Assembly: GCF_050920415.1 (NCBI RefSeq)
Contig: NZ_CP169309.1
Length of the DNA: 64,000 bases
Origin: Escherichia coli
Lineage (GTDB): Bacteria; Pseudomonadota; Gammaproteobacteria; Enterobacterales; Enterobacteriaceae
Strand: one strand, 5' to 3'
Shown here: in pieces, positions 1 through 23,379 of the stretch
Layout: every line of letters starts with the position of its first letter
How positions within the stretch are numbered: position 1 is the stretch's first letter
Program-made: the position numbers and the translations under genes
The notes under the pieces: generated by a model
Database searches by the model: none
The model's input: the letters and a program-made list of their open reading frames with translations, nothing else
What the model was told of the DNA's origin: nothing

Positions 1-1
1 G

Positions 2-2341
2 CAACAACAGCAACTCAGCCAGCAGATAGTCGCTGCTGCCGATGAGATCGCACGCCTGGCACAAGGTCAGGCGAATAATGCGGCAACCTCCGCCGGAGCG
101 ACCCAGGCTGGGATTTACGATTTGATCGAACAACATCAGCGTCAGGCCGCAGAAAACGCACTTGATCGGCTGATTGATATCGATCTTGAGTACGTTAACC
201 AGATGAATGAACTGCGCCTTAGCGCCCTGCGGGTGCAGCAAATGGTGATGAATCTGGGGCTGGAACAGATCCAGAAAAATGCGCCAACGCTGGAAAAGCA
301 GCTCAATAATGCGGTGAAAATTCTGCAACGTCGGCAAATACGCATTGAAGATCCGGGAGTTCGTGCTCAGGTCGCAACAACGTTAACTTCCGTTAGCCAA
401 TATAGCGATTTGCTGGCGCTGTATCAGCAGGACAGTGAAATCAGCAATCACCTGCAAACTCTCGCCCAAAATAACATCGCCCAGTTCGCGCAGTTTAGTA
501 GCGAAGTCAGTCAACTGGTCGACACCATTGAGCTGCGTAATCAGCATGGCCTGGCGCATCTGGAAAAAGCCAGTGCACGCGGGCAATACAGCCTGTTATT
601 GCTGGGGATAGTTTCACTTTGTGCATTGATTCTGATCCTCTGGCGCGTAGTTTATCGCTCAGTCACGCGTCCACTTGCCGAACAAACGCAGGCGCTGCAA
701 CGACTGCTGGACGGTGATATCGACTCCCCTTTTCCGGAAACCGCTGGCGTGCGGGAGCTGGACACCATCGGGCGGCTGATGGATGCGTTTCGCAGCAGTG
801 TTCATGCGCTTAATCGCCACCGCGAACAGCTGGCGGCGCAGGTAAAAGCGCGCACAGCCGAATTGCAGGAATTGGTGGTCGAACATCGACAGGCACGGGC
901 GGAAGCAGAAAAAGCCAGCCAGGCAAAATCGGCGTTTCTGGCGGCAATGAGCCATGAGATCCGCACACCGCTGTACGGTATTCTCGGCACCGCGCAACTG
1001 CTGGCGGATAATCCCGCACTTAATGCCCAGCGTGATGATTTGCGGGCAATTACTGACTCTGGTGAATCGTTGCTGACCATCCTTAACGACATTCTCGATT
1101 ATTCGGCTATCGAAGCGGGTGGCAAGAATGTTTCGGTCAGCGATGAGCCCTTTGAACCGCGCCCGCTGCTGGAAAGTACCCTGCAATTAATGAGCGGACG
1201 GGTGAAAGATCGCCCAATTCGCCTGGCAACGGCAATTGCCGACGATGTACCAACTGCGTTAATGGGCGATCCGCGACGAATTCGTCAGGTCATTACCAAC
1301 CTGTTGAGCAACGCCCTGCGTTTCACTGACGAAGGGCACATTATCCTGCGTAGTCGCACTGATGGCGAGCAATGGCTACTCGAAGTAGAAGACAGCGGCT
1401 GCGGTATTGATCCCGCGAAACTGGCAGAAATCTTCCAGCCATTTGTTCAGGTAAGCGGCAAACGCGGCGGCACCGGGCTGGGGCTGACTATCAGTAGCCG
1501 TCTGGCCCAGGCGATGGGTGGCGAACTGAGCGCCACCAGTACGCCGGAGGTTGGAAGCTGTTTTTGTTTACGCTTGCCGTTACGTATTGCCACGGCACCC
1601 GTGCCCAAAACAGTCAATCAGGCGGTACGTCTGGACGATTTGCGTTTGCTGTTAATTGAAGATAACCCGCTAACCCAGCGAATTACCGTCGAAATGCTGA
1701 ACACCAGTGGTGCGCAGGTCGTTGCGGTAGGAAATGCCGCGCAGGCAATAGATGCATTGCAAAATAGCGAACCGTTTGCTGCCGCACTGGTGGATTTTGA
1801 TCTGCCGGATATAGACGGCATTACCCTTGCCCGGCAACTGGCACAGCAATATCCGTCACTGGTTTTGATTGGCTTTAGCGCCCATGTCATCGACGAAACA
1901 CTGCGCCAGCGTACCAGTTCATTATTTCGCGGGATTATACCTAAACCGGTGCCGCGTGAAGTGCTCGGTCAGTTACTGGCGCACTATCTCCAACTGCAAG
2001 TCAATAACGATCAACCGTTGGATATATCGCAACTCAATGAAGATGCTCAGTTAATGGGAACAAAGAAGATCCACGAATGGCTGGCATTATTTAAACAACA
2101 TGCCCTGCCGCTTCTCGATGAAATCGACATTGCCCGCGCCAGTCAGGATAGCGAGAAAATAAAGCGTGCCGCGCATCAGCTAAAAAGCAGTTGCTCAAGT
2201 CTGGGAATGCGTAGCGCCAGCCAGTTATGCGCACAACTGGAGCAGCAGCCATTATCTGCCCCCCTTCCACACGAAGAAATTACACGCAGTGTTGCCGCTC
2301 TGGAAGCATGGTTGAATAAGAAAGACCTGAACGCGATTTGA
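2..2341 (+). CDS. torS: Hybrid sensor histidine kinase TorS, 5'-truncated by window edge
   Basis: Frame is open from window start; H-box MSHEIRTPL, ATPase motifs ([15 protein letters not shown]), receiver domain ([17 protein letters not shown]), C-terminal HPt region; followed by yccM as in E. coli. Confidence 0.8.
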
Positions 2342-2412
2342 ATCAATATCAGCCAGTTAAGAACAACTAGAATAGTGGCATTTGGTATGCAACTTAACGG
2401 ACTGGCAAAATC

Positions 2413-3486
2413 ATGACAGAGAAAAGAAGAACCCGCTGGCAGCGGCGGCCAGGGACGACGGGCGGCAAATTACCGTGGAATGACTGGCGCAATGCCACGA
2501 CCTGGCGTAAAGCGACGCAATTATTACTGTTGGCAATTAATATTTATATTGCCATCACGTTCTGGTATTGGGTGCGCTATTACGAAACGGCAGGTAGTAC
2601 GACATTTGTCGCCAGGCCAGGAGGCATCGAAGGCTGGCTACCGATTGCCGGTCTGATGAATCTGAAATATAGCCTTGCAACAGGCCAGTTACCGTCCGTC
2701 CACGCCGCCGCGATGCTGTTATTGGTCGCTTTTATCGTCATCAGTCTATTACTAAAAAAGGCCTTTTGTTCATGGTTATGCCCGGTTGGTACGCTTTCTG
2801 AATTCATCGGCGATCTCGGTAACAAACTGTTTGGTCGGCAATTTGTCCTTCCCCGCTGTCTGGATATTCCTCTGCGCGGCGTGAAGTATTTGCTGTTGAG
2901 TTTTTTTCTCTATATCGCGTTATTGATGCCCGCTCAGGCTATTCACTATTTTATGTTGTCGCCCTACAGCGTGGTGATGGACGTTAAAATGCTCGATTTC
3001 TTTCGTCATATGGGGACATCGACATTAATCAGCGTGACCGTTTTGCTGATTGTCAGTCTGTTTATTCGCCATGCCTGGTGTCGTTATCTTTGCCCATATG
3101 GCGCGCTGATGGGCGTGGTTTCGCTATTGTCGCCGTTTAAGATTCGTCGCAATGCCGAAAGTTGTATCGACTGTGGCAAATGCGCAAAAAATTGCCCATC
3201 GCGGATCCCGGTCGATAAATTAATTCAGGTACGAACCGTGGAATGTACCGGTTGTATGACTTGCGTAGAGTCATGTCCGGTAGCCTCAACATTGACCTTT
3301 TCACTGCAAAAACCTGCGGCAAATAAAAAAGCCTTTGCGTTGTCTGGCTGGTTAATGACGCTACTGGTTCTGGGGATTATGTTTGCGGTGATTGGTTACG
3401 CAATGTATGCGGGAGTATGGCAAAGCCCGGTGCCGGAGGAATTGTACCGACGCTTAATTCCGCAAGCGCCAATGATTGGTCACTAA
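2413..3486 (+). CDS. yccM: Membrane-bound 4Fe-4S ferredoxin-type protein (NapH/MauN-like)
   Basis: 357-aa ORF with multiple TM segments and Cys clusters (CxxCxxCxxxCP); recognised as YccM. Confidence 0.8.
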   Translation: MTEKRRTRWQRRPGTTGGKLPWNDWRNATTWRKATQLLLLAINIYIAITFWYWVRYYETAGSTTFVARPGGIEGWLPIAGLMNLKYSLATGQLPSVHAAAMLLLVAFIVISLLLKKAFCSWLCPVGTLSEFIGDLGNKLFGRQFVLPRCLDIPLRGVKYLLLSFFLYIALLMPAQAIHYFMLSPYSVVMDVKMLDFFRHMGTSTLISVTVLLIVSLFIRHAWCRYLCPYGALMGVVSLLSPFKIRRNAESCIDCGKCAKNCPSRIPVDKLIQVRTVECTGCMTCVESCPVASTLTFSLQKPAANKKAFALSGWLMTLLVLGIMFAVIGYAMYAGVWQSPVPEELYRRLIPQAPMIGH

Positions 3487-3533
3487 ATTAGCAACAAGCG
3501 GAACATCACCTCGCACGGGGTGATGTTCACAAA

Positions 3534-3707
3534 ATCACATTATTTTGATTTTGACATCATAGCTTTCAAGCCCGGTCATTTTTTCTCGTGCGGTGAAGCG
3601 AATTTCAGAGACTTCTTTCCCTGTATTCTTGTTCAGCTCGGCGATTTTTTGCGCGATAAAGTCAGCGATTTCCGTTTCGGCTTGTTTTTTTAACTCTTCA
3701 ATATTCA
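3534..3707 (-). CDS. gnsA: GnsA, small protein (57 aa), GTG start
   Basis: Hand translation gives VNIEELKKQAETEIADFIAQKIAELNKNTGKEVSEIRFTAREKMTGLESYDVKIKIM; AAGAGG Shine-Dalgarno 6 nt upstream of GTG; below the 60-aa ORF track cutoff. Confidence 0.7.
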
Positions 3708-3928
3708 CTGTTAACCTCTTCTGGTCTTAAAAGACAGCAACACGCCAGTAAGGTGTTGGTTCCCGGTACCCTGGTCAGGTAAGAAATGTTATAAGCCATC
3801 TCCCCTAAAGATTCAATAATCAACAGGTTATCGCTTACTATACATACAGCGTTAAAGAAAAATAAGGCAGATATAAAAAAGGCTCCACGAGGGAGCCTAA
3901 TCTTATTTTGTGAAATCCAGCGGCGCAT
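3698..3928 (-). CDS. ymcE: Small protein YmcE (76 aa)
   Basis: ORF 3698..3961 contains MRRWISQNKIRLPRGAFFIS...; position between gnsA and cspG matches E. coli order; start chosen at internal Met. Confidence 0.55.
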   Translation of the reverse strand: MRRWISQNKIRLPRGAFFISALFFFNAVCIVSDNLLIIESLGEMAYNISYLTRVPGTNTLLACCCLLRPEEVNSEY

Positions 3929-4100
3929 GGTCAGTGCGTATTTGCAGCGCGACGTTATCAAAGGTGATCATCGTCGATTTACAAAAAATACACTTTGCCC
4001 CTAAAGGATTTCGCTCCGTCACATCGAATGCCGATGTGCGGTACTGTGAACCATGACAACATGGACAGCGGAAATGGAGATGTTGAGTAATAACGGCAAC
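3903..4100 (-). CDS. Small zinc-ribbon-like protein (two CxxC pairs), start uncertain
   Basis: ORF 3903..4163 encodes HFRCPCCHGSQY...KCIFCKS; the listed Met lies inside cspG, so the true start is probably downstream and non-ATG. Confidence 0.3.
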   Translation of the reverse strand, partial: VAVITQHLHFRCPCCHGSQYRTSAFDVTERNPLGAKCIFCKSTMITFDNVALQIRTDHAPLDFTK

Positions 4101-4101
4101 C

Positions 4102-4314
4102 TTAGAGCGTAACAACGTTCGCTGCCGCGGGACCACGTTGCCCCTGCTCAATAGAAAATTCAACTTTCTGATTTTCGTTCAGCGTGCGGAATTCATTGCT
4201 CTGGATGGCGGTGAAATGGACGAAAACGTCTTTGCTGCCATCATCAGGAGTGATAAAGCCAAAACCTTTATCTGCGTTAAACCATTTTACTAAACCAGTC
4301 ATTTTATTAGACAT
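4102..4314 (-). CDS. cspG: Cold shock protein CspG
   Basis: 70-aa [37 protein letters not shown]... with RNP1/RNP2 cold-shock-domain motifs. Confidence 0.92.
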
Positions 4315-4599
4315 ATTTTACTTCCTTCATTTTGGGCCTTTCGGCAAACAGGGCTTTAATACAGAAACTACTTAGTGTTCAGGAGAGAGACTCAAAAGAA
4401 GGGGATAATGCCTGATAATGAGAACTGCTTTAGTAAACTACTTTGTATGCTGTCTGTCTTTCAAACCGACGCAGCTATTAACGCATGATAATTGAGATTA
4501 AGCAATTTTTATTTTAGCCGTCCGGCGGTCTTAAATATCGCTGGCTTTATTTTATTAACCCCGTATAGTGCAGCGCAGTATTTTCAGTAAGGAATTTGT

Positions 4600-4812
4600 T
4601 TGTCCCGTAAAATGACAGGAATTGTCAAAACCTTTGATCGCAAAAGCGGCAAAGGATTCATTATCCCCTCCGACGGTCGTAAAGAAGTCCAGGTCCATAT
4701 TTCCGCATTCACTCCCCGCGACGCAGAAGTGCTTATACCAGGATTACGCGTGGAATTTTGCCGCGTAAATGGCCTACGCGGACCAACAGCGGCAAATGTT
4801 TATCTCTCTTAA
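4600..4812 (+). CDS. cspH: Cold shock-like protein CspH
   Basis: 70-aa [40 protein letters not shown]...; divergent from cspG. Confidence 0.9.
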
Positions 4813-5253
4813 GATGACGCAGCTTGTTTAAAGCTGGCTGTTTTTATTAAAAAAGCTCAATAGTCAACATCGCACATTATAACAAAAGTTACTTTCACCC
4901 CAGAAAACAAATCCATTTAGCCGAATATCTCTGCACCTAATAGTTATAAATGCTACTTAACAGTCAATCATAGTACCGCTTGAAACTATATCACCAACAA
5001 TAGTTAATAGCTTTCTTAACAATTTTCTTATCTTTAATTTGTATTTTTCTAAGATTTATCTTATGCTCACAAGTCGTATTTCCAGAGGGAAATCGTTAAC
5101 AATCTTATATTTCTCTCTGCGCGCCTTTCCCACTCGCGGTATATAGTACCGACGGTATGCGGAAAGGGAGATTTCACAAGGATGTTATACTCAAAGTAGA
5201 CAATCCTGATCTCAAGCGTACGTATTGTCCATGCGATGAATAAAGGAAAAGTT

Positions 5254-5559
5254 ATGAAACACAAGCTTTCTGCAATCCTTATGGCCTTCATGTTGACGAC
5301 GCCAGCTGCGTTTGCTGCACCAGAAGCAGCAAACGGGACCGAGGCAACGACGGGTACTACTGGCACCACAACGACCACTACTGGTGCCACTACGACTGCT
5401 GCTACCACCGGTGGCGTAGCTGCTGGCGCTGTCGGCACGGCGACGGTTGTCGGTGTGGCAACGGCTGTTGGTGTGGCGACTTTGGCAGTAGTTGCAGCAA
5501 ATGACAGTGGCGATGGCGGTTCTCATAACACCTCAACCACCACGTCCACTACGCGCTAA
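5254..5559 (+). CDS. gfcA: GfcA, Thr-rich small secreted/membrane protein (group 4 capsule operon)
   Basis: MKHKLSAILMAFMLTTPAAFA signal peptide followed by Thr/Gly/Ala-rich low-complexity region; first gene of gfc operon. Confidence 0.75.
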   Translation: MKHKLSAILMAFMLTTPAAFAAPEAANGTEATTGTTGTTTTTTGATTTAATTGGVAAGAVGTATVVGVATAVGVATLAVVAANDSGDGGSHNTSTTTSTTR

Positions 5560-5665
5560 TACTGCTTTAACGCGTCAAAATTAAAGTTAAATGATACCCG
5601 GTTGCGATATTCGTACCGGGCTTTAGAGATTTGCATTTTTTTAATTAACCTTTCAAGGATTAAAG

Positions 5666-6310
5666 GTGCGCCCTCTTATTTTATCGATTTTCGCACTATT
5701 TCTTGCGGGATGTACACACAGCCAGCAAAGTATGGTCGATACATTTCGCGCCAGCCTTTTCGATAATCAGGATATCACCGTAGCGGATCAGCAGATCCAG
5801 GCGTTGCCTTATTCCACGATGTATTTACGCCTTAATGAAGGGCAACGAATCTTTGTGGTACTGGGATATATAGAACAAGAACAAAGCAAATGGTTATCCC
5901 AGGATAACGCCATGCTGGTTACCCACAATGGACGTCTTTTAAAAACCGTCAAACTTAATAATAATCTGCTGGAAGTGACAAATTCCGGGCAGGACCCTCT
6001 GCGTAACGCGCTGGCAATAAAAGACGGCAGCCGCTGGACGCGCGATATTCTCTGGAGTGAAGACAATCATTTTCGCTCTGCGACCCTGAGTTCCACTTTT
6101 TCCTTTGCTGGATTAGAGACGCTGAATATTGCGGGTCGCGATGTGCTGTGTAATGTCTGGCAGGAAGAGGTGACTTCCACGCTGCCAGAAAAACAGTGGC
6201 AAAACACATTCTGGGTCGATTCGGCTACTGGCCAGGTTCGTCAAAGTCGGCAAATGTTAGGCGCAGGGGTTATTCCCGTAGAAATGACGTTTCTTAAACC
6301 CGCACCATGA
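5666..6310 (+). CDS. gfcB: GfcB lipoprotein (YjbF family)
   Basis: 214-aa ORF with lipoprotein signal LFLAGC; operon position. Confidence 0.8.
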   Translation: MRPLILSIFALFLAGCTHSQQSMVDTFRASLFDNQDITVADQQIQALPYSTMYLRLNEGQRIFVVLGYIEQEQSKWLSQDNAMLVTHNGRLLKTVKLNNNLLEVTNSGQDPLRNALAIKDGSRWTRDILWSEDNHFRSATLSSTFSFAGLETLNIAGRDVLCNVWQEEVTSTLPEKQWQNTFWVDSATGQVRQSRQMLGAGVIPVEMTFLKPAP

Positions 6311-7053
6311 ATAAATTACAGTCGTATTTCATTGCCAGCGTACTTTACGTAATGACACCCCATGCCTTTGCGCAAGGAACGGTGACTATTTATCTGCCTG
6401 GCGAACAACAGCCCCTTTCCGTTGGCCCCGTGGAGAATGTTGTCCAGTTGGTGACACAACCGCAACTGCGCGATCGCCTCTGGTGGCCTGGAGTCTTGCT
6501 GACCGACTCCGCGGCGAAAGCTAAAGCGCTTAAAGACTACCAACATGTCATGGCACAGCTTGCTTCCTGGGAAGCAGAAGCTGACGACGATGTGGCGGCA
6601 ACGATTAAATCCGTGCGCCAGCAGTTACTCAATCTCAATATCACTGGTCGCTTACCGGTCAAACTGGACCCTGATTTTGTACGAGTGGATGAGAACAGCA
6701 ATCCCCCGCTGGTCGGGGACTATACGCTCTATACCGTACAGCGCCCAGTGACTATTACTCTGCTGGGTGCGGTTACTGGGGCTGGGCAATTGCCCTGGCA
6801 GGCAGGCCGTAGCGTTACCGATTATCTGCAAGATACCCCCCGTCTTGCAGGCGCGGACAAGAATAACGTTATGGTGATTACGCCTGAGGGTGAGACTGTC
6901 GTCGCCCCTGTTGCCCTGTGGAATAAAAGACATGTGGAACCACCGCCTGGCAGCCAGCTTTGGTTGGGCTTTTCTGCGCATGTACTGCCCGAAAAATATG
7001 CTGATTTAAATGACCAGATTGTGTCTGTTTTAACGCAACGTGTTCCTGACTGA
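6307..7053 (+). CDS. gfcC: GfcC, capsule biosynthesis periplasmic protein
   Basis: 248-aa ORF with signal peptide; 4-nt overlap with gfcB stop; operon position. Confidence 0.8.
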
Positions 7054-9149
7054 TGAAGAAGAACTCTTATCTTTTAAGCTGCCTGGCCATTGCCGTCTCC
7101 AGTGCCTGTCATGCTGAAGTATTAACCTACCCGGATCCGCTGGGGTCGTCGCAATCAGACTTTGGCGGCACAGGATTGTTGCAGATGCCAAATGCGCGCA
7201 TCGCACCGGAAGGTGAATTCAGCGTCAACTACCGGGATAACGATCAATACCGTTTCTACTCCACGTCCGTGGCGCTGTTCCCATGGCTGGAAGGCACCAT
7301 TCGTTATACGGATGTGCGCACGCGCAAATATAGCCAGTGGGAAGATTTCAGCGGCGATCAGTCATACAAAGACAAATCTTTCGATTTTAAACTTCGCCTG
7401 TGGGAAGAAGGTTACTGGCTACCGCAAGTGGCGTTTGGTAAACGTGATATTGCTGGTACGGGTCTGTTTGACGGTGAATATTTGGTGGCCAGCAAGCAAG
7501 CGGGGCCATTTGATTTCACCCTCGGGATGGCGTGGGGCTACGCCGGTAATGCGGGCAATATTACCAACCCGTTTTGCCGGGTGAGCGATAAATATTGTCA
7601 TCGCGCAGAGTCTCACGATGCGGGAGATATCAGCTTTAGCGATATCTTTCGTGGCCCGGCTTCCATCTTTGGCGGCATTGAGTATCAAACGCCGTGGAAT
7701 CCCCTGCGTCTGAAACTCGAATACGATGGCAACAATTACCAGAATGATTTTGCGGGCAAATTGCCGCAGGCAAGCCATTTCAATTTCGGTGCTGTGTATC
7801 GTGCTGCCAGCTGGGCAGATCTTAACCTTAGCTACGAGCGCGGTAACACATTGATGTTTGGCTTCACGTTACGGACCAATTTCAACGATCTGCGCCCTGC
7901 CCTGCGCGATACGCCAAAACCGGCATATCAACCTGCGCCGGAATCTGAAGGATTGCAGTACACCACAGTAGCGAACCAACTTACCGCGCTGAAGTACAAC
8001 GCAGGTTTTGAAGCACCGGAAATTCAGCTGCGCGATAAGACGCTGTATATGTCTGGTCAACAATACAAATACCGTGATTCTCGCGAAGCGGTCGATCGTG
8101 CCAACCGGATTCTGGTGAATAACCTGCCGCAAGGCGTTGAGAAGATTAGCGTGACGCAAAAGCGCGAGCATATGGCGATGGTGACGACCGAAACCGACGT
8201 AGCCAGCCTGCGCAAACAGCTCGCCGGTACCGCGCCTGGTAAAGCAGAGCCACTGCAACAACAACGTGTTGAAGTAGAAGATCTTTCTGCCTTTGGTCGG
8301 GGCTACCGTATTCGTGAAGATCGCTTTAGCTATTCTTTCAACCCAACACTTTCGCAGTCGCTGGGCGGTCCGGAAGATTTTTATATGTTCCAGTTGGGGC
8401 TGATGTCCAGTGCCCGCTACTGGTTTACCGACCACCTGCTGCTTGATGGCGGTATTTTCACCAATATTTACAACAACTACGACAAGTTTAAGTCTTCGCT
8501 GTTACCCGCGGACTCTACCTTGCCCCGCGTGCGCACGCATATCCGTGATTACGTTCGCAATGACGTTTATCTCAACAACTTACAGGCGAACTATTTTGCC
8601 GACTTAGGCAACGGTTTCTATGGCCAGGTGTACGGCGGTTATCTGGAAACGATGTATGCCGGTGTTGGTTCCGAGCTGCTTTATCGCCCGCTCGATGCCA
8701 GCTGGGCGCTGGGGGTGGACGTTAACTACGTGAAGCAGCGTGACTGGGACAACATGATGCGCTTCACCGATTATTCCACGCCAACAGGTTTCGTGACGGC
8801 TTACTGGAACCCGCCGACGCTCAATGGCGTACTGATGAAACTCAGCGTTGGGCAATATCTGGCAAAAGATAAAGGGGCAACCATCGACGTCGCCAAACGC
8901 TTTGACAGCGGTGTGGCAGTAGGAGTATGGGCGGCAATCAGTAACGTATCTAAAGATGACTACGGCGAAGGCGGCTTTAGTAAAGGGTTTTATATCTCGA
9001 TTCCGTTTGACTTGATGACCATTGGACCTAACCGCAACCGCGCGGTGGTTTCGTGGACACCATTGACGCGTGATGGTGGACAAATGCTGTCACGCAAATA
9101 CCAGCTCTATCCAATGACGGCAGAGCGAGAAGTACCGGTTGGACAATAA
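7053..9149 (+). CDS. gfcD: GfcD, outer-membrane beta-barrel protein (YjbH family)
   Basis: 698-aa ORF with signal peptide; start overlaps gfcC stop. Confidence 0.8.
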
Positions 9150-9194
9150 CCTGACGTAATTCATAACATTACAATGACTGATAAATATAAACCA

Positions 9195-10334
9195 ATGAAA
9201 AAGAACATTTTTAAGTTTTCGGTACTGACATTGGCTGTTCTGTCTTTGACAGCATGTACCCTTGTTCCTGGTCAGAATTTATCGACCAGTAACAAGGATG
9301 TCATTGAACTACCTGACAATCAGTATGACCTGAACAAAATGGTCAATATCTATCCCGTCACGCCAGGATTGATTGATCAGCTGCGCGCCAAACCGATTAT
9401 GTCGCAGGCTAACCCGGAGCTGGAGCAACAAATCGCGAACTATGAATATCGCATCGGCATTGGCGATGTGTTGATGGTGACGGTCTGGGATCACCCGGAA
9501 CTAACCACACCCGCAGGGCAATATCGTAGCGCCAGTGATACTGGCAACTGGGTTAACGCTGATGGTGCAATTTTCTACCCTTATATTGGTCGCCTGAAAG
9601 TGGCCGGGAAAACGCTTACCCAAGTACGCAACGAGATTACAGCGCGTCTGGACTCAGTCATTGAAAGCCCGCAAGTCGATGTCAGCGTCGCGGCGTTCCG
9701 ATCGCAAAAAGCGTACGTCACCGGCGAAGTCAGCAAATCGGGTCAGCAGCCGATTACCAATATTCCTCTGACCATCATGGATGCGATTAACGCCGCGGGC
9801 GGTCTGACCGCAGATGCAGACTGGCGCAACGTGGTGCTCACCCAGAATGGCGTAAAGACCAAAGTGAACCTCTATGCGCTGATGCAGCGTGGCGACTTGC
9901 GCCAGAACAAACTGCTGCACCCGGGCGATATTTTATTTATTCCGCGCAACGATGATCTGAAAGTCTTCGTGATGGGTGAAGTGGGTAAACAGAGCACGCT
10001 GAAAATGGACCGCAGCGGTATGACCCTGGCGGAAGCACTGGGTAACGCTGAGGGTATGAATCAAGATGTCGCTGATGCGACGGGGATTTTTGTTATTCGT
10101 GCAACGCAAAACAAGCAGAATGGCAAAATCGCCAATATTTATCAGCTGAATGCGAAGGACGCATCGGCAATGATACTCGGAACGGAATTCCAGCTTGAAC
10201 CTTACGACATTGTTTATGTCACTACCGCGCCGCTGGCTCGTTGGAACCGTGTGATTTCTCTGCTGGTACCGACGATTTCCGGGGTGCATGACCTGACAGA
10301 GACTTCACGGTGGATTCAAACATGGCCCAACTAA
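9195..10334 (+). CDS. gfcE: GfcE, Wza-like outer-membrane polysaccharide export lipoprotein
   Basis: Lipoprotein signal [21 protein letters not shown]; Wza-family sequence; start taken at internal Met of ORF 9174..10334. Confidence 0.8.
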
Positions 10335-10768
10335 AATTTAACTCAATCCTGGTGGTTTGTACCGGCAACATTTGCCGTTCGCCCATTGGCGAACGCTTGC
10401 TGCGTAAACGTCTGCCAGGCGTAAAAGTCAAATCGGCAGGTGTTCATGGTCTGGTAAAGCACCCTGCAGATGCAACAGCGGCAGATGTTGCCGCTAATCA
10501 TGGCGTATCTCTTGAAGGACATGCCGGACGTAAGCTTACTGCTGAGATGGCACGAAATTACGATCTGATTCTGGCAATGGAGTCGGAACATATTGCTCAG
10601 GTTACGGCAATCGCTCCCGAGGTCCGCGGGAAGACAATGCTGTTTGGGCAATGGCTGGAACAGAAAGAGATCCCTGATCCCTATCGTAAAAGCCAGGACG
10701 CATTTGAACATGTTTACGGCATGTTGGAGCGCGCCAGTCAGGAATGGGCGAAGCGCCTTAGCCGGTAA
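10322..10768 (+). CDS. etp: Etp, low-molecular-weight protein-tyrosine phosphatase
   Basis: [10 protein letters not shown]-loop motif; overlaps gfcE 3' end by 13 nt. Confidence 0.85.
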
Positions 10769-10787
10769 TTTGAGTTTATAAAATACG

Positions 10788-12968
10788 ATGACAACTAAAA
10801 ATATGAATACGCCACCAGGCAGCACTCAGGAGAATGAGATCGATCTGCTTCGTCTGGTCGGCGAGTTATGGGATCACCGTAAGTTTATTATCAGCGTGAC
10901 TGCGTTATTCACGCTGATCGCTGTCGCTTACTCGCTGTTAAGCACGCCAATTTATCAGGCAGATACTCTGGTCCAGGTTGAGCAGAAACAGGGCAACGCC
11001 ATTCTCAGCGGCCTGAGCGATATGATCCCTAACTCATCGCCCGAGTCAGCACCGGAGATCCAACTGCTGCAATCGCGCATGATTCTCGGTAAAACCATTG
11101 CTGAACTGAATCTGCGCGACATAGTTGAGCAAAAGTATTTTCCGATTGTGGGTCGCGGCTGGGCGAGATTAACCAAAGAGAAACCAGGTGAGCTGGCGAT
11201 CAGTTGGATGCACATTCCACAACTGAATGGCCAGGATCAACAACTGACACTCACAGTTGGGGAAAACGGCCACTATACGCTGGAAGGTGAAGGGTTCACC
11301 GTCAATGGTATGGTCGGCCAGCGTCTGGAAAAAGACGGCGTTGCTCTGACTATCGCGGACATTAAGGCCAAACCAGGAACGCAGTTTGTCCTGAGCCAGC
11401 GTACCGAACTGGAAGCGATTAACGCGTTGCAGGAAACCTTTACCGTTAGCGAACGCAGTAAAGAAAGCGGGATGCTGGAACTTACCATGACCGGTGATGA
11501 TCCCCAGTTGATTACTCGTATTCTGAACAGCATCGCTAACAACTATTTGCAACAGAATATCGCTCGCCAGGCGGCGCAGGATTCACAAAGCCTTGAATTC
11601 TTACAGCGCCAGTTGCCAGAAGTGCGCAGCGAGCTGGACCAGGCGGAAGAAAAACTCAACGTTTATCGCCAGCAGCGCGATTCGGTTGACCTTAACCTGG
11701 AAGCCAAAGCCGTTCTTGAGCAGATTGTTAACGTTGATAATCAACTCAATGAGCTGACCTTCCGCGAGGCCGAGATCTCCCAGCTGTATAAGAAAGATCA
11801 CCCAACTTATCGTGCGCTGCTGGAAAAACGCCAGACGCTGGAGCAAGAACGCAAACGCCTGAATAAGCGGGTATCGGCAATGCCTTCCACTCAACAGGAA
11901 GTATTGCGTTTAAGCCGTGACGTAGAAGCGGGCCGTGCGGTATATCTGCAATTACTTAACCGCCAGCAGGAGTTGAGTATTTCGAAATCCAGTGCGATTG
12001 GTAACGTGCGGATTATCGACCCGGCAGTCACTCAGCCGCAGCCAGTAAAACCGAAAAAAGCGTTGAATGTGGTGCTTGGTTTTATTCTTGGCCTGTTTAT
12101 TTCGGTGGGTGCCGTGCTGGCGCGTGCGATGTTGCGTCGTGGTGTAGAAGCACCGGAACAACTGGAAGAGCACGGCATCAGCGTTTATGCCACTATCCCG
12201 ATGTCCGAGTGGCTGGATAAGCGTACCCGTCTGCGTAAGAAAAATTTATTTTCTAATCAGCAGCGCCATCGTACTAAAAATATCCCCTTCCTGGCGGTGG
12301 ATAACCCGGCGGATTCTGCTGTGGAAGCCGTACGTGCGCTACGAACCAGTCTGCACTTCGCTATGATGGAGACAGAGAATAACATTCTGATGATCACCGG
12401 TGCGACGCCAGACAGTGGTAAAACGTTCGTCAGTTCAACTCTGGCGGCGGTGATCGCCCAGTCCGATCAAAAAGTGTTATTTATTGATGCTGACTTACGT
12501 CGTGGTTATTCGCATAACCTGTTTACCGTGAGTAATGAACATGGCTTGTCGGAATATCTGGCAGGGAAAGATGAGCTCAACAAAGTGATCCAGCATTTTG
12601 GCAAAGGAGGCTTTGATGTGATTACTCGCGGTCAGGTGCCACCTAACCCGTCTGAACTGCTGATGCGCGATCGGATGCGTCAATTACTGGAATGGGCGAA
12701 CGACCATTACGATCTGGTGATTGTCGATACGCCGCCGATGCTGGCGGTGAGCGATGCTGCGGTCGTGGGGCGCTCTGTCGGCACCAGCCTGCTGGTTGCG
12801 CGTTTTGGCTTGAACACCGCCAAAGAGGTGAGCTTGTCAATGCAGCGTCTGGAACAGGCTGGCGTTAATATTAAAGGCGCAATCCTCAATGGTGTGATTA
12901 AACGCGCCAGCACCGCTTACAGTTATGGCTATAACTATTACGGTTATAGTTACTCCGAGAAAGAGTAA
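10788..12968 (+). CDS. etk: Etk, BY-kinase (Wzc paralog) tyrosine autokinase
   Basis: 726-aa ORF; Walker A GATPDSGKT; C-terminal Tyr cluster YSYGYNYYGYSYSEKE. Confidence 0.88.
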   Translation: MTTKNMNTPPGSTQENEIDLLRLVGELWDHRKFIISVTALFTLIAVAYSLLSTPIYQADTLVQVEQKQGNAILSGLSDMIPNSSPESAPEIQLLQSRMILGKTIAELNLRDIVEQKYFPIVGRGWARLTKEKPGELAISWMHIPQLNGQDQQLTLTVGENGHYTLEGEGFTVNGMVGQRLEKDGVALTIADIKAKPGTQFVLSQRTELEAINALQETFTVSERSKESGMLELTMTGDDPQLITRILNSIANNYLQQNIARQAAQDSQSLEFLQRQLPEVRSELDQAEEKLNVYRQQRDSVDLNLEAKAVLEQIVNVDNQLNELTFREAEISQLYKKDHPTYRALLEKRQTLEQERKRLNKRVSAMPSTQQEVLRLSRDVEAGRAVYLQLLNRQQELSISKSSAIGNVRIIDPAVTQPQPVKPKKALNVVLGFILGLFISVGAVLARAMLRRGVEAPEQLEEHGISVYATIPMSEWLDKRTRLRKKNLFSNQQRHRTKNIPFLAVDNPADSAVEAVRALRTSLHFAMMETENNILMITGATPDSGKTFVSSTLAAVIAQSDQKVLFIDADLRRGYSHNLFTVSNEHGLSEYLAGKDELNKVIQHFGKGGFDVITRGQVPPNPSELLMRDRMRQLLEWANDHYDLVIVDTPPMLAVSDAAVVGRSVGTSLLVARFGLNTAKEVSLSMQRLEQAGVNIKGAILNGVIKRASTAYSYGYNYYGYSYSEKE

Positions 12969-12985
12969 AACTGAAGGTAAGGTGG

Positions 12986-13020
12986 CCGGATGCGGCGTGA
13001 ACGCCTTTTCCGGCCTACGC
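12986..13020. repeat. REP (repetitive extragenic palindromic) element
   Basis: GCCGGATGCGGCGTGAACGCCTTTTCCGGCCTACG matches the REP consensus pattern; lies between convergent etk and appA. Confidence 0.6.
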
Positions 13021-13051
13021 ATCAGACAGTTCTTCGTTTGTCATCAGCTTC

Positions 13052-13083
13052 AGAGCATTCAGGTAACTGAATGCTCTTTTTTT
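13052..13083 (+). terminator. Intrinsic terminator downstream of etk
   Basis: Hairpin AGAGCATTCAG-GTAA-CTGAATGCTCT followed by T7 run. Confidence 0.65.
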
Positions 13084-13088
13084 ATGCA

Positions 13089-14387
13089 TTACAAACTGCA
13101 CGCCGGTATGCGTGCTTCATTCACGATTTGCGTAAAACCGGCCAACGAACACATACCCTGCGCGTTTCGCTCTTCACATCCTGCCAGAGTCAGCTTCACC
13201 TCTCCGGGCGGCGACTTTAATGATAGCGGCGTTTTATCACGCATCTGCTGTAAAGTCTGGAATACCACCGAAACCTGAATCCACTGGCTGTTATCGCTTA
13301 GCCGACGCCAGCGTTCAAACACCAGTTCACCACCTGGCGGCGTGTTATCCGGCTGACCTGGAAGCGTCCAGTTGAGCTCCAGTGCGCCGCCGAGATTTGC
13401 CAGATTAGTATCGTGTCCGGCGATAAACAGCACTGAAGTGGGTAATGTCACACCATACACCTGTTTTTGCGGTGGATGGGGCATCAACGCTGTCATGATC
13501 AAATCCAACAACGGGGTGGCACGACTGCGGGCAACCTCTGGCGTGCGTTGTAGCAAATAAAACTGCGCGTTATGCAGGCTTAGCAAGGTGTTCCACTGGT
13601 GTGAATCGGTGATCCTTCCCCACCCCGGCTCCGGCATTCCCTGTGCTTGTTGCAGGAGAAATATCTCCGTCAGCATTGACGCCAGGCTTACCGCACCGGT
13701 TAATGAGACATTGTCGGCGCTCACCTTGAGTTCCGATGGTAATACCTGCGTTAATGAACAGCTTTCGTCCTGTTTCTCACGGTTAAGGCACAAGTTTGAT
13801 TGTGGGAAATTAAGCACCTGTTCCAGTTCGCGAAACGCCGTTTGCCGATGCCCGGTAAAGTCAGCAATTGACCCTCCTGCCCTGCTGAGGATCGCGTCAG
13901 TCACGTTCGCGTTATCCAGTTGGCAAATGCCAGTTTTTAGAGGATTAAATAACGGATCGGGACTGGACGTATCTGCCTGGGTATGTACGGTTATTGCACA
14001 GTCAGGTGCCAGCCCGGCAGCGAAGGCTTCGCCTGTTTTACGGGTACGCTCGTCGACATCAGCAATAATCGCGACCTGACCAGGCTGCGGGCAGCCCTTT
14101 TTCGCCAGCAATCCGTCAGCCACCAGACGCTGGCGTTGGTAATGTCCGAGATAAGCGATTAGCTCACCACCGCGCGGTGTCAGCCACCCCAGTTTTACCG
14201 GCCATGTTGGCCATGCGTCTGGGGTGACATCCTGCATCAGTTGCGTGGCCTTGGTTGGGGCACGCACACCATGACGACTGACAATCACCACACTTTCCAG
14301 CTTCAGCTCCGGCTCACTCTGAGCGAATGCAGATTGCGGGGTGAACGGAATCAGAAGAGATAAGAATGGGATCAAGATCGCTTTCAT
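13089..14387 (-). CDS. appA: AppA, periplasmic acid phosphatase/phytase
   Basis: MKAILIPFLSLLIPFTPQSAFA signal peptide, histidine acid phosphatase RHGVRAP motif; start at internal Met of ORF. Confidence 0.9.
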   Translation of the reverse strand: MKAILIPFLSLLIPFTPQSAFAQSEPELKLESVVIVSRHGVRAPTKATQLMQDVTPDAWPTWPVKLGWLTPRGGELIAYLGHYQRQRLVADGLLAKKGCPQPGQVAIIADVDERTRKTGEAFAAGLAPDCAITVHTQADTSSPDPLFNPLKTGICQLDNANVTDAILSRAGGSIADFTGHRQTAFRELEQVLNFPQSNLCLNREKQDESCSLTQVLPSELKVSADNVSLTGAVSLASMLTEIFLLQQAQGMPEPGWGRITDSHQWNTLLSLHNAQFYLLQRTPEVARSRATPLLDLIMTALMPHPPQKQVYGVTLPTSVLFIAGHDTNLANLGGALELNWTLPGQPDNTPPGGELVFERWRRLSDNSQWIQVSVVFQTLQQMRDKTPLSLKSPPGEVKLTLAGCEERNAQGMCSLAGFTQIVNEARIPACSL

Positions 14388-14425
14388 CGATATGTTTCCG
14401 CTTTTCATATCCGACATTATTGATT

Positions 14426-14457
14426 GCCTGATGCGACGCTAATGCGCCTCATCAGGC
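14426..14457. repeat. Palindromic REP-like hairpin between appX and appA
   Basis: GCCTGATGCGACGCTAATGCGCCTCATCAGGC, an imperfect palindrome in the intergenic region. Confidence 0.4.
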
Positions 14458-14466
14458 TTACGTTCG

Positions 14467-14559
14467 TTAACTTTTCAGACGCGGGTCCAGCCATACCAAC
14501 ACAAGGGTGGAGAGCGAACACATCAACAAAATGCCGACGAACCAAAGTAAATACCACAT
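14467..14559 (-). CDS. appX: AppX (CbdX), 30-aa cytochrome bd-II accessory peptide
   Basis: Hand translation MWYLLWFVGILLMCSLSTLVLVWLDPRLKS immediately downstream of appB; below ORF track cutoff. Confidence 0.7.
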   Translation of the reverse strand: MWYLLWFVGILLMCSLSTLVLVWLDPRLKS

Positions 14560-14571
14560 TGTTCCTGCTCC

Positions 14572-15708
14572 TTAGTACAGCTCGTTTTCGTTACGGCGGA
14601 GAGTTTCTGTCGTCATGCGCCCCCACATTTTGTAGTAGCTCCAGAGAGTGTAGAGCAACACAATGGGCAAAAATATCAGCACGATTACCAACATAATGCT
14701 CAGCGTCAACTGGCTGGAAGTGCTGTCCCACAACGTCAGGCTGGAGATCGGACTTACGCTCGAAGGCATGACAAAAGGGAACAGCGTGATGCCTGCCGTG
14801 AAAATTACGCCAAATTGCATCAATGACGCCATCAAAAATCCCCATCCCGGGCGACCACGATAAATCGCCATCACCGTCAGCAATGGACAGAAGAACCCCA
14901 GCAGCGGGAAGATCCACAAAACAGGCGATTCGACGAAATTATTCATCCAGGCACCAGGTAGCACTGCCACCAGTTTCATTAACGGGTTGGAAGGACCGTT
15001 CACATCCTGGGCGAGCAGTACAAAGCCATCAATACCGACCCACAGCCAGTAACCCGCCAGTAAAAAGCACAGCATCACCAGTAGAGCAGCACGTTTGGTC
15101 GCCAACTGAGAACGCAGATGAATAACACCAACGGTTTTCAACTGTAACCAAACGCCACCTTGCAAAATCACCATCCCAAGGCTGAGCAAGCCGCACAATA
15201 AAGGGAATGGCGTCAACAGTTGCCAAAAGCTGCCGAGATACTCCACGCGTAATTGTGGTGTGAAGGCAAACGGCACGCCGAGTAACAAGTTGCCGAATAC
15301 GATACCAAAGACGACCGGCGGCACCAGACTGCCGATGACCAGGCCGGCATCCCACATTTTACGCCAGCGTGCATTGGCGATTTTTCCTCGATAATCAAAG
15401 GCCAGCGGGCGGAAGAACAGCGAGCACAGCACCAGGATCATCGCCACATAAAAACCGGAAAACGCTGCTGCATACACTCTGGGCCAGGCGGCAAATAATG
15501 CCCCACCTGCGAGGATTAACCAGACCTGATTGCCTTCCCAGTGCGCGCCAACGCTGTTTATCACTATCCGGCGTTCATCATCATTACGCGCCACCAGCGG
15601 CAGCAGACAGCCGATCCCCATGTCAAATCCATCGGAGATCATAAAGACCACCAGGATCACGCCAATCAGCAGCCACCAGATGAAGCGCAATGTTTCATAA
15701 TCAAACAT
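14572..15708 (-). CDS. appB: Cytochrome bd-II oxidase subunit II
   Basis: 378-aa polytopic membrane protein, CydB-like; follows appC. Confidence 0.9.
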
Positions 15709-23291: not shown

Positions 23292-23379
23292 GGAAGTGTG
23301 GCCGAGCGGTTGAAGGCACCGGTCTTGAAAACCGGCGACCCGAAAGGGTTCCAGAGTTCGAATCTCTGCGCTTCCGCCA
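23292..23379 (+). tRNA. serT: tRNA-Ser (anticodon UGA)
   Basis: 88-nt GGAAGTGTGGCCGAGCGG...TTCGAATCTCTGCGCTTCCGCCA; anticodon loop CTTGAAA; long variable arm; encoded CCA. Confidence 0.92.

Follow-up and report, generated by a model that had tools for sequence, protein, structure and literature searches.

The group 4 capsule operon (ymcDCBA-yccZ-etp-etk, here written gfcABCDE-etp-etk) was defined in EPEC O127:H6 E2348/69 by Peleg et al. (2005, J Bacteriol 187:5259), as that work is related in later papers (PMC3853201; PMC8592465; PMC2516531). In Escherichia coli K-12, an IS1 element lies between this operon and the gene upstream, cspH. The locus described here, part of a 64-kb stretch of E. 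coli DNA (the window), raises the question of whether the same interval is interrupted in this strain, and of what its state would mean for expression of the operon and for the capsule. An unbroken cspH-gfcA control region, without the IS1 of K-12, was confirmed. Very probably the interval is the operon's own regulatory region in uninterrupted form, and the window shows the state before insertion. The interruption in K-12 has been in the literature since 2005 and other strains with an intact, IS-free spacer have been reported; what is seen here is the usual wild-type form of a well-studied locus and, as such, is already known. Its practical value lies in annotation, and no new question is opened by it.

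The cspH-gfcA spacer and the IS1D site

The interval 4813-5253 is the entire spacer, because cspH ends at 4812 and the annotated ATG of gfcA begins at 5254 (Table 1). The original prediction, made from the sequence alone, had described about 440 bp of unbroken AT-rich DNA before gfcA, had seen no IS1 ends by eye and had placed an IS1 copy in the corresponding interval of K-12. The spacer proved to be exactly 441 bp long, with a G+C content of 35.6% vs 50.2% for the whole window, and its alignments with the spacers of EPEC E2348/69 and EHEC EDL933, likewise 441 bp each, were gapless. A search of all 64 kb with up to three mismatches found no IS1 terminal repeat, and IS-like inverted repeats were likewise absent from 4700-5400. 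A hidden IS fragment in the spacer was ruled out by these two results together with the gapless alignments. The copy in K-12 was confirmed: in MG1655, IS1D (768 bp, 1049778-1050545) is annotated between gfcA and cspH. The element sits 24 nt before the start codon of gfcA, with a copy of the 9-mer CGTATTGTC on either side of it. A target duplication of 9 bp is the signature of IS1. A 2025 study also located IS1D in the gfcA promoter region (PMC12428005).

Pairwise and multiple alignments placed the K-12 insertion between the equivalents of window positions 5229 and 5230, and the K-12 and window spacers were gapless apart from IS1 and one extra copy of the 9-mer. The window holds neither a 768-bp IS1 with terminal inverted repeats nor a duplicated CGTATTGTC; with a single copy of the 9-mer and no IS1 end, it therefore represents the empty, pre-insertion site. 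Alignment with K-12, which had been suggested as the check on the original prediction, thus returned an interrupted spacer for K-12, an uninterrupted one for the window and no IS fragment.

Table 1. Features of the cspH-gfcA interval and of the genes on either side of it (positions in the window)
Feature	Position	Strand	Description	Basis or remark
cspH	4600-4812	+	Cold-shock-like protein, 70 aa, TTG start	NCBIfam NF012008 CspH equivalog, E = 1e-52
cspH-gfcA spacer	4813-5253		441 bp, 35.6% G+C	Complete, uninterrupted
Variable distal half of spacer	4813-5000		31 of the 45 differences from EDL933	Aligns poorly with E. albertii
Terminator-like hairpin and T-run	4820-4846	+	Stem CAGCTTGTTTAAAGCTG, then GCTGTTTTTA	Consensus scan, pattern match only
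Putative distal sigma-70-type promoter	5039-5067	+	-35 TTGTAT (5039-5044), 17-nt spacer, -10 TATGCT (5062-5067)	Would serve start G5076
Palindrome, candidate operator	5050-5063		TAAGATTTATCTTA	Between distal -35 and -10
Near-consensus CsrA-like motif	5176-5185		ACAAGGATGT	Overlaps TG of proximal extended -10; within leader of distal transcript
Putative proximal promoter	5183-5191	+	Extended -10 TGTTATACT	Would serve start A5198, 56 nt before ATG
Empty target site of K-12 IS1D	5221-5229		Single copy of CGTATTGTC	Alignment with K-12
Shine-Dalgarno of gfcA	5243-5247	+	AAGGA, 6 nt before ATG	Read from sequence
gfcA	5254-5559	+	Threonine-rich inner-membrane protein, 101 aa	Identical to O157 protein
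gfcB	5666-6310	+	Lipoprotein, 214 aa	
gfcC	6307-7053	+	248 aa	
gfcD	7053-9149	+	Outer-membrane YjbH-domain protein, 698 aa	
gfcE	9195-10334	+	Wza-like polysaccharide export protein, 379 aa	NCBIfam NF011658, E = 1.5e-211
etp	10322-10768	+	Phosphotyrosine phosphatase, 148 aa	NCBIfam NF008486, E = 1.6e-100
etk	10788-12968	+	Tyrosine autokinase, 726 aa, full length	NCBIfam NF007350, positions 1-726 of 726, 1593 bits

Genes of the operon and their surroundings

Between cspH and appA, the latter on the opposite strand after etk, all seven genes read in the same direction. Their order, gfcA, B, C, D, E, etp, etk, and their setting are those of the group 4 operon, and the locus is syntenic with those of K-12, O157 and EPEC. 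None of the seven open reading frames has an internal stop; their lengths equal those in K-12 and O157, with amino-acid identities of at least 97%, and both CspH and Etp are identical to the K-12 and O157 proteins. Positions 1-14700 of the window are 100% identical to E. coli MFDS1022581 (NZ_CP169399.1), in which RefSeq calls all seven genes intact and also annotates cspH. In EPEC, each of the seven operon genes is reportedly essential for the capsule. In Z0117EC0005, whose haplotype is closely related to that of the window, etk contains an internal stop; gene integrity therefore needs checking strain by strain, and in the window it holds.

Several other features were seen in and around these genes. 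An in-frame ATG lies 18 nt upstream of the annotated gfcA start (5236-5253), and translation from it would yield 107 aa (MNKGKV-MKHK...). The Shine-Dalgarno sequence is better spaced from the annotated start, and the IS1 of K-12 lies 6 nt upstream of the alternative ATG. Within gfcA, imperfect 21-nt tandem repeats (5345-5389) encode a Thr/Gly-rich segment of the protein; among the coding sequences of the operon this gene varies most, its nucleotide identity to K-12 being 95.4%. Farther downstream, next to tRNA-Ser(tga) (23292-23379), about 2.5 kb (23422-25973) is absent from K-12 and Z0117EC0005. The annotation of the identical genome treats this segment as the remains of a decayed prophage or island, with an integrase fragment, a Lom fragment, hypothetical genes, tRNA-Gly(tcc) (24786-24856) and tRNA-Arg(tct) (24860-24936). 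In O157, effector-gene remnants lie downstream of the same tRNA-Ser.

Transcription starts and promoters

Start sites of gfcA in EDL933 were determined by Cappable-seq under eight conditions, at 191, 178, 128, 99, 82, 56, 30 and 2 nt before the ATG (PMC10469882, Table S5, supplementary file 8). The 56-nt start was found in all eight conditions, the 128-nt start in seven and the 178-nt start in six, the last being the strongest gfcA start in five of the eight (PMC10469882). These starts can be transferred to the window because both spacers are 441 bp long and align without gaps. Once the EDL933 gene coordinates had been confirmed, they mapped to positions 5063, 5076, 5126, 5155, 5172, 5198, 5224 and 5252 respectively, of which 5155, 5172, 5224 and 5252 are minor sites. 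The outcome is a base-level map of the published EHEC starts on the window's allele.

From their spacing, judged by inspection, the distal hexamers and the extended -10 in Table 1 would belong to the starts at 5076 and 5198. The distal promoter matches only seven of the 12 consensus positions, and a generic consensus scan found no sigma-70 promoter on the + strand of the spacer; as a guide to promoters, the scan was superseded by the experimental start sites. The distal hexamers TTGTAT and TATGCT are identical in the window, EPEC E2348/69, EHEC and K-12, and the extended -10 TGTTATACT is identical to that of EDL933. Sequence around the -178, -128 and -56 starts is conserved, with no difference from EDL933 anywhere in 5161-5253 and with two differences near the -178 promoter, both outside its hexamers. 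Upstream, the terminator-like hairpin probably ends the cspH transcript, in which case gfc transcription should start downstream of 4820-4846. The original prediction had read a complete gfcABCDE-etp-etk operon behind an intact promoter region, and both parts of that reading are supported: all seven genes are uninterrupted and full length, the starts mapped in EDL933 fall inside the interval, and the promoter elements are kept.

The same start-site study reported gfcA starts in MG1655 at 958 and 90 nt before the ATG (PMC10469882). Subtraction of the 777 bp of IS1 and duplication from the former leaves 181 nt, the equivalent of window position 5073; in K-12, too, the distal promoter is therefore active and reads into IS1. 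The latter lies 57 nt inside the end of IS1D. Except for the minor start 2 nt before the ATG, every start mapped in EDL933 is upstream of the K-12 insertion point. As every main native start is upstream of the insertion, IS1 splits the promoters from the ribosome-binding site and destroys no promoter. This position of the K-12 element, downstream of every main start, is part of what the map adds.

These MG1655 starts bear on whether IS1D silences the K-12 operon, as the original prediction had supposed, or rewires it through an outward promoter in the IS1 end or through read-through, so that the difference from the window would be quantitative or regulatory and not on/off. We regard rewiring as somewhat unlikely. 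The start inside IS1D and the distal native start across IS1 speak for it, as does the RpoD holoenzyme site that Genomic SELEX detected in the gfcA/insA4 spacer, with the predicted promoter TGGAGA-18-TACACT (PMC3946193); this promoter was located in the gfcA-proximal end of the K-12 IS1. K-12 etk mutants, moreover, have polymyxin and heat-shock phenotypes, which implies that etk is expressed to some extent despite IS1 (PMC2516531). On the other side stands the accepted view, given by Lacour et al., that K-12 grown in LB does not express the operon (PMC2516531), and in the literature searched no quantitative comparison of K-12 with and without IS1D was found. Silencing agrees with the accepted view for LB, but full silencing does not fit the etk-dependent phenotypes and the start inside IS1.

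Taken as the native regulatory region of gfcABCDE-etp-etk, the interval 4813-5253 would comprise the cspH terminator, a fast-evolving AT-rich distal half and a conserved proximal part, some 200 bp long, in which several promoters and the gfcA leader lie. Transcripts from the native promoters could enter gfcA directly and extend over etk. The K-12 IS1D, inserted at CGTATTGTC, puts 777 bp between all the main promoters and the gfcA ribosome-binding site.

Conservation and divergence of the spacer

Differences between the window and EDL933 amount to 45 of the 441 spacer positions and are unevenly spread: 31 in 4813-4993, 14 in 5048-5160 and none in 5161-5253. The last stretch is identical in the window, EDL933, K-12 and SS17. 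The distal half also aligns poorly with Escherichia sp. MOD1-EC7003; in both that genome and E. albertii, 5028-5090 and 5155-5253 hardly vary. The gfcA Shine-Dalgarno AAGGA is invariant in all aligned alleles. This pattern fits a functional proximal control region joined to an apparently unconstrained distal part.

In the 23 kb of synteny, the spacer is the most divergent 400-bp stretch, at 89.6% identity to K-12 and 89.8% to O157 vs a median of 96.75%; next to it, the spacer between cspG and cspH reaches 99.6%. Spacers at least 95% identical to it occur in only 27 of 3712 genomes. A spacer that differs by about 10% from the common E. coli alleles could be a regulatory variant that alters control of the capsule operon in this lineage, and, besides its divergence and rarity, the stretch 5125-5165, in which the window agrees with E. 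albertii and MOD1-EC7003 and not with K-12, O157 or EPEC, points that way. We nevertheless hold this to be very unlikely. The window's form of gfcD is rare as well, being matched at 99% identity or more in only two of 5426 genomes, and the same strains top the spacer and gfcD lists; the whole gfc locus is therefore a rare haplotype, not the spacer alone. By our estimate, divergence of about 10% is roughly what would be expected at unconstrained sites when coding DNA differs by 3.3%, and neither the core hexamers nor the last 93 nt have changed. Import of the spacer allele from another Escherichia species was ruled out: at 79.5% identity to E. albertii and 88.6% to MOD1-EC7003, it is no closer to these than to other E. 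coli, and the whole locus is rare. The divergent allele is accordingly not regarded as a feature in its own right, and the native regulatory region remains the preferred reading of the interval.

Candidate regulatory motifs and the leader RNA

Two short motifs in the proximal 200 bp were considered as possible control sites. The multiple alignment shows the palindrome TAAGATTTATCTTA without any change across E. coli, E. albertii and Escherichia sp. MOD1-EC7003. Its pattern occurs at this one site in the 64-kb window vs 0.03 sites expected, for a pattern that was picked after the sequence had been seen. It resembles what we take to be the consensus of the RcsAB/RcsB box. The second motif, ACAAGGATGT, agrees at 10 of 12 positions with what is presumably the SELEX consensus for CsrA. 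Motifs of this type number two in the window (5176-5185, and 9292-9301 inside gfcE) vs 0.16 expected, an excess that might be chance. The literature search found no paper linking gfcA regulation to RcsB and none linking gfcA and CsrA.

The 202 nt from about the distal start into gfcA (5074-5275) fold at -55.3 kcal/mol (z = -3.15). Across six alleles, a compensatory change was seen in one of 55 pairs and the covariation term was +0.14, a comparison that is uninformative since almost all pairs are invariant. No Rfam family matched the spacer at E values up to 1. Beyond the spacer, the only matches were to the cspA-type thermoregulator, in the leader of cspG, and to isrG inside gfcA, the latter at chance level. 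The former (4300-4470, minus strand; RF01766, 37 bits, E = 1.3e-7) is expected for a cspA-family gene, and its score falls below the gathering threshold because the queried stretch cut the match.

On these grounds the proximal 200 bp might be read as a multi-promoter control region with two undescribed features, an Rcs-type box formed by the palindrome TAAGATTTATCTTA and an unusually well-folding 178-nt leader that bears the CsrA-like ACAAGGATGT and the GGA of the Shine-Dalgarno sequence; we consider this quite unlikely. If it were true, group 4 capsule export would come under envelope-stress and Csr control, it would be the leader, not the promoter, that is cut by IS1 in K-12, and the CsrA-like site would share bases with the proximal extended -10 promoter.

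Distribution of the unbroken spacer

A census of 5426 complete E. coli genomes was made for the gfc locus. The gfcD gene was present in 3714 of them (68%), and the remaining third or so lacked the operon. A 100-bp probe centred on the K-12 insertion site matched 3610 genomes and was unbroken in 3194 of these (88%, or 59% of all 5426); up to 416 (8% of all) were split or truncated at the site. Evenly spaced sampling of the ranked spacer matches put the K-12-type split at about 370 genomes. A probe for the K-12 junction matched 704 genomes at 80% coverage or more, part of them through other loci, and was set aside in favour of the empty-site probe. Other disruptions were seen in individual strains: IS421 lies in the same spacer of MS 124-1, an independent IS1 lies elsewhere in the spacer of FG92-1, and in CFT073-like strains cspH abuts appA, the operon and spacer being gone. 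The census, itself a by-product of the analysis, identifies the unbroken spacer as the ancestral and majority state, not one peculiar to this strain.

Expression and capsule formation

A capsule requires an intact promoter but is not assured by it; permissive regulation and a Wzy-dependent O-antigen cluster are needed as well, the latter located elsewhere on the chromosome and outside the window. EHEC has the same unbroken arrangement and yet gave about 30-fold less gfcA mRNA than EPEC, with no visible capsule in N-minimal medium (PMC3853201), and one O26 EHEC was non-capsulated (PMC10932389). EHEC shows that the capsule cannot be predicted from genotype alone. It is possible, though not probable, that the region in the present strain is intact but the operon effectively silent, for example through nucleoid proteins on AT-rich DNA or through Ler-type or other regulators, or that a suitable O-antigen is lacking, so that the absence of IS1 would have no phenotypic meaning. 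The low gfcA mRNA of O157 and the non-capsulated state of the O26 strain, in an EHEC group in which the operon is present, both favour such silence, as do the AT-richness of the spacer and the placement of the O-antigen cluster outside the window. Yet gfcA starts were found in EDL933 in all eight conditions, with strengths of the strongest start per condition of 35-387 vs 78-894 for cspG in the same table (PMC10469882), so that transcription is not off even in EHEC; all seven genes, besides, have been kept intact.

Regulation in the present strain could also differ from that in EDL933, because 14 of the differences between the two fall in 5048-5160, among the mapped starts, and 31 further upstream. 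Reading the interval as a native, uninterrupted control region, we infer from the sequence that the promoters may fire in this strain and that a capsule may form. The strain has a complete gfc-etp-etk export system that looks transcription-competent, like those of EPEC, EHEC, Shigella sonnei and most E. coli of phylogroups A, B1 and E. It could therefore form an O-antigen capsule, which is associated with resistance to serum, defensins and complement.

Comparison with known systems

The locus of EPEC E2348/69 resembles that of the window in gene order between cspH and appA, in its unbroken 441-bp spacer and in the candidate hexamers, and its last 93 nt equal those of the window except for one base, at the equivalent of 5201. 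It differs by many substitutions in the spacer, mostly in the distal half. Capsule production has been demonstrated for E2348/69, the capsule-positive reference strain. EHEC O157:H7 EDL933 shares with the window the gapless 441 bp, an identical GfcA, the identical stretch 5161-5253 and identical distal hexamers. Its 45 substitutions include those at 5048, in the promoter spacer, and at 5072, in the discriminator; at both positions the window agrees with EPEC and K-12 and not with EHEC.

For E. coli 26561, a variant O89 strain, the same observation as the one made here was published earlier (PMC6128206), a likeness drawn from the description of that strain. K-12 MG1655 has the same flanking genes as the window, the same class of spacer sequence up to the insertion point and seven intact genes. 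It differs in carrying IS1D with the duplicated CGTATTGTC, for which the window presents the empty site.
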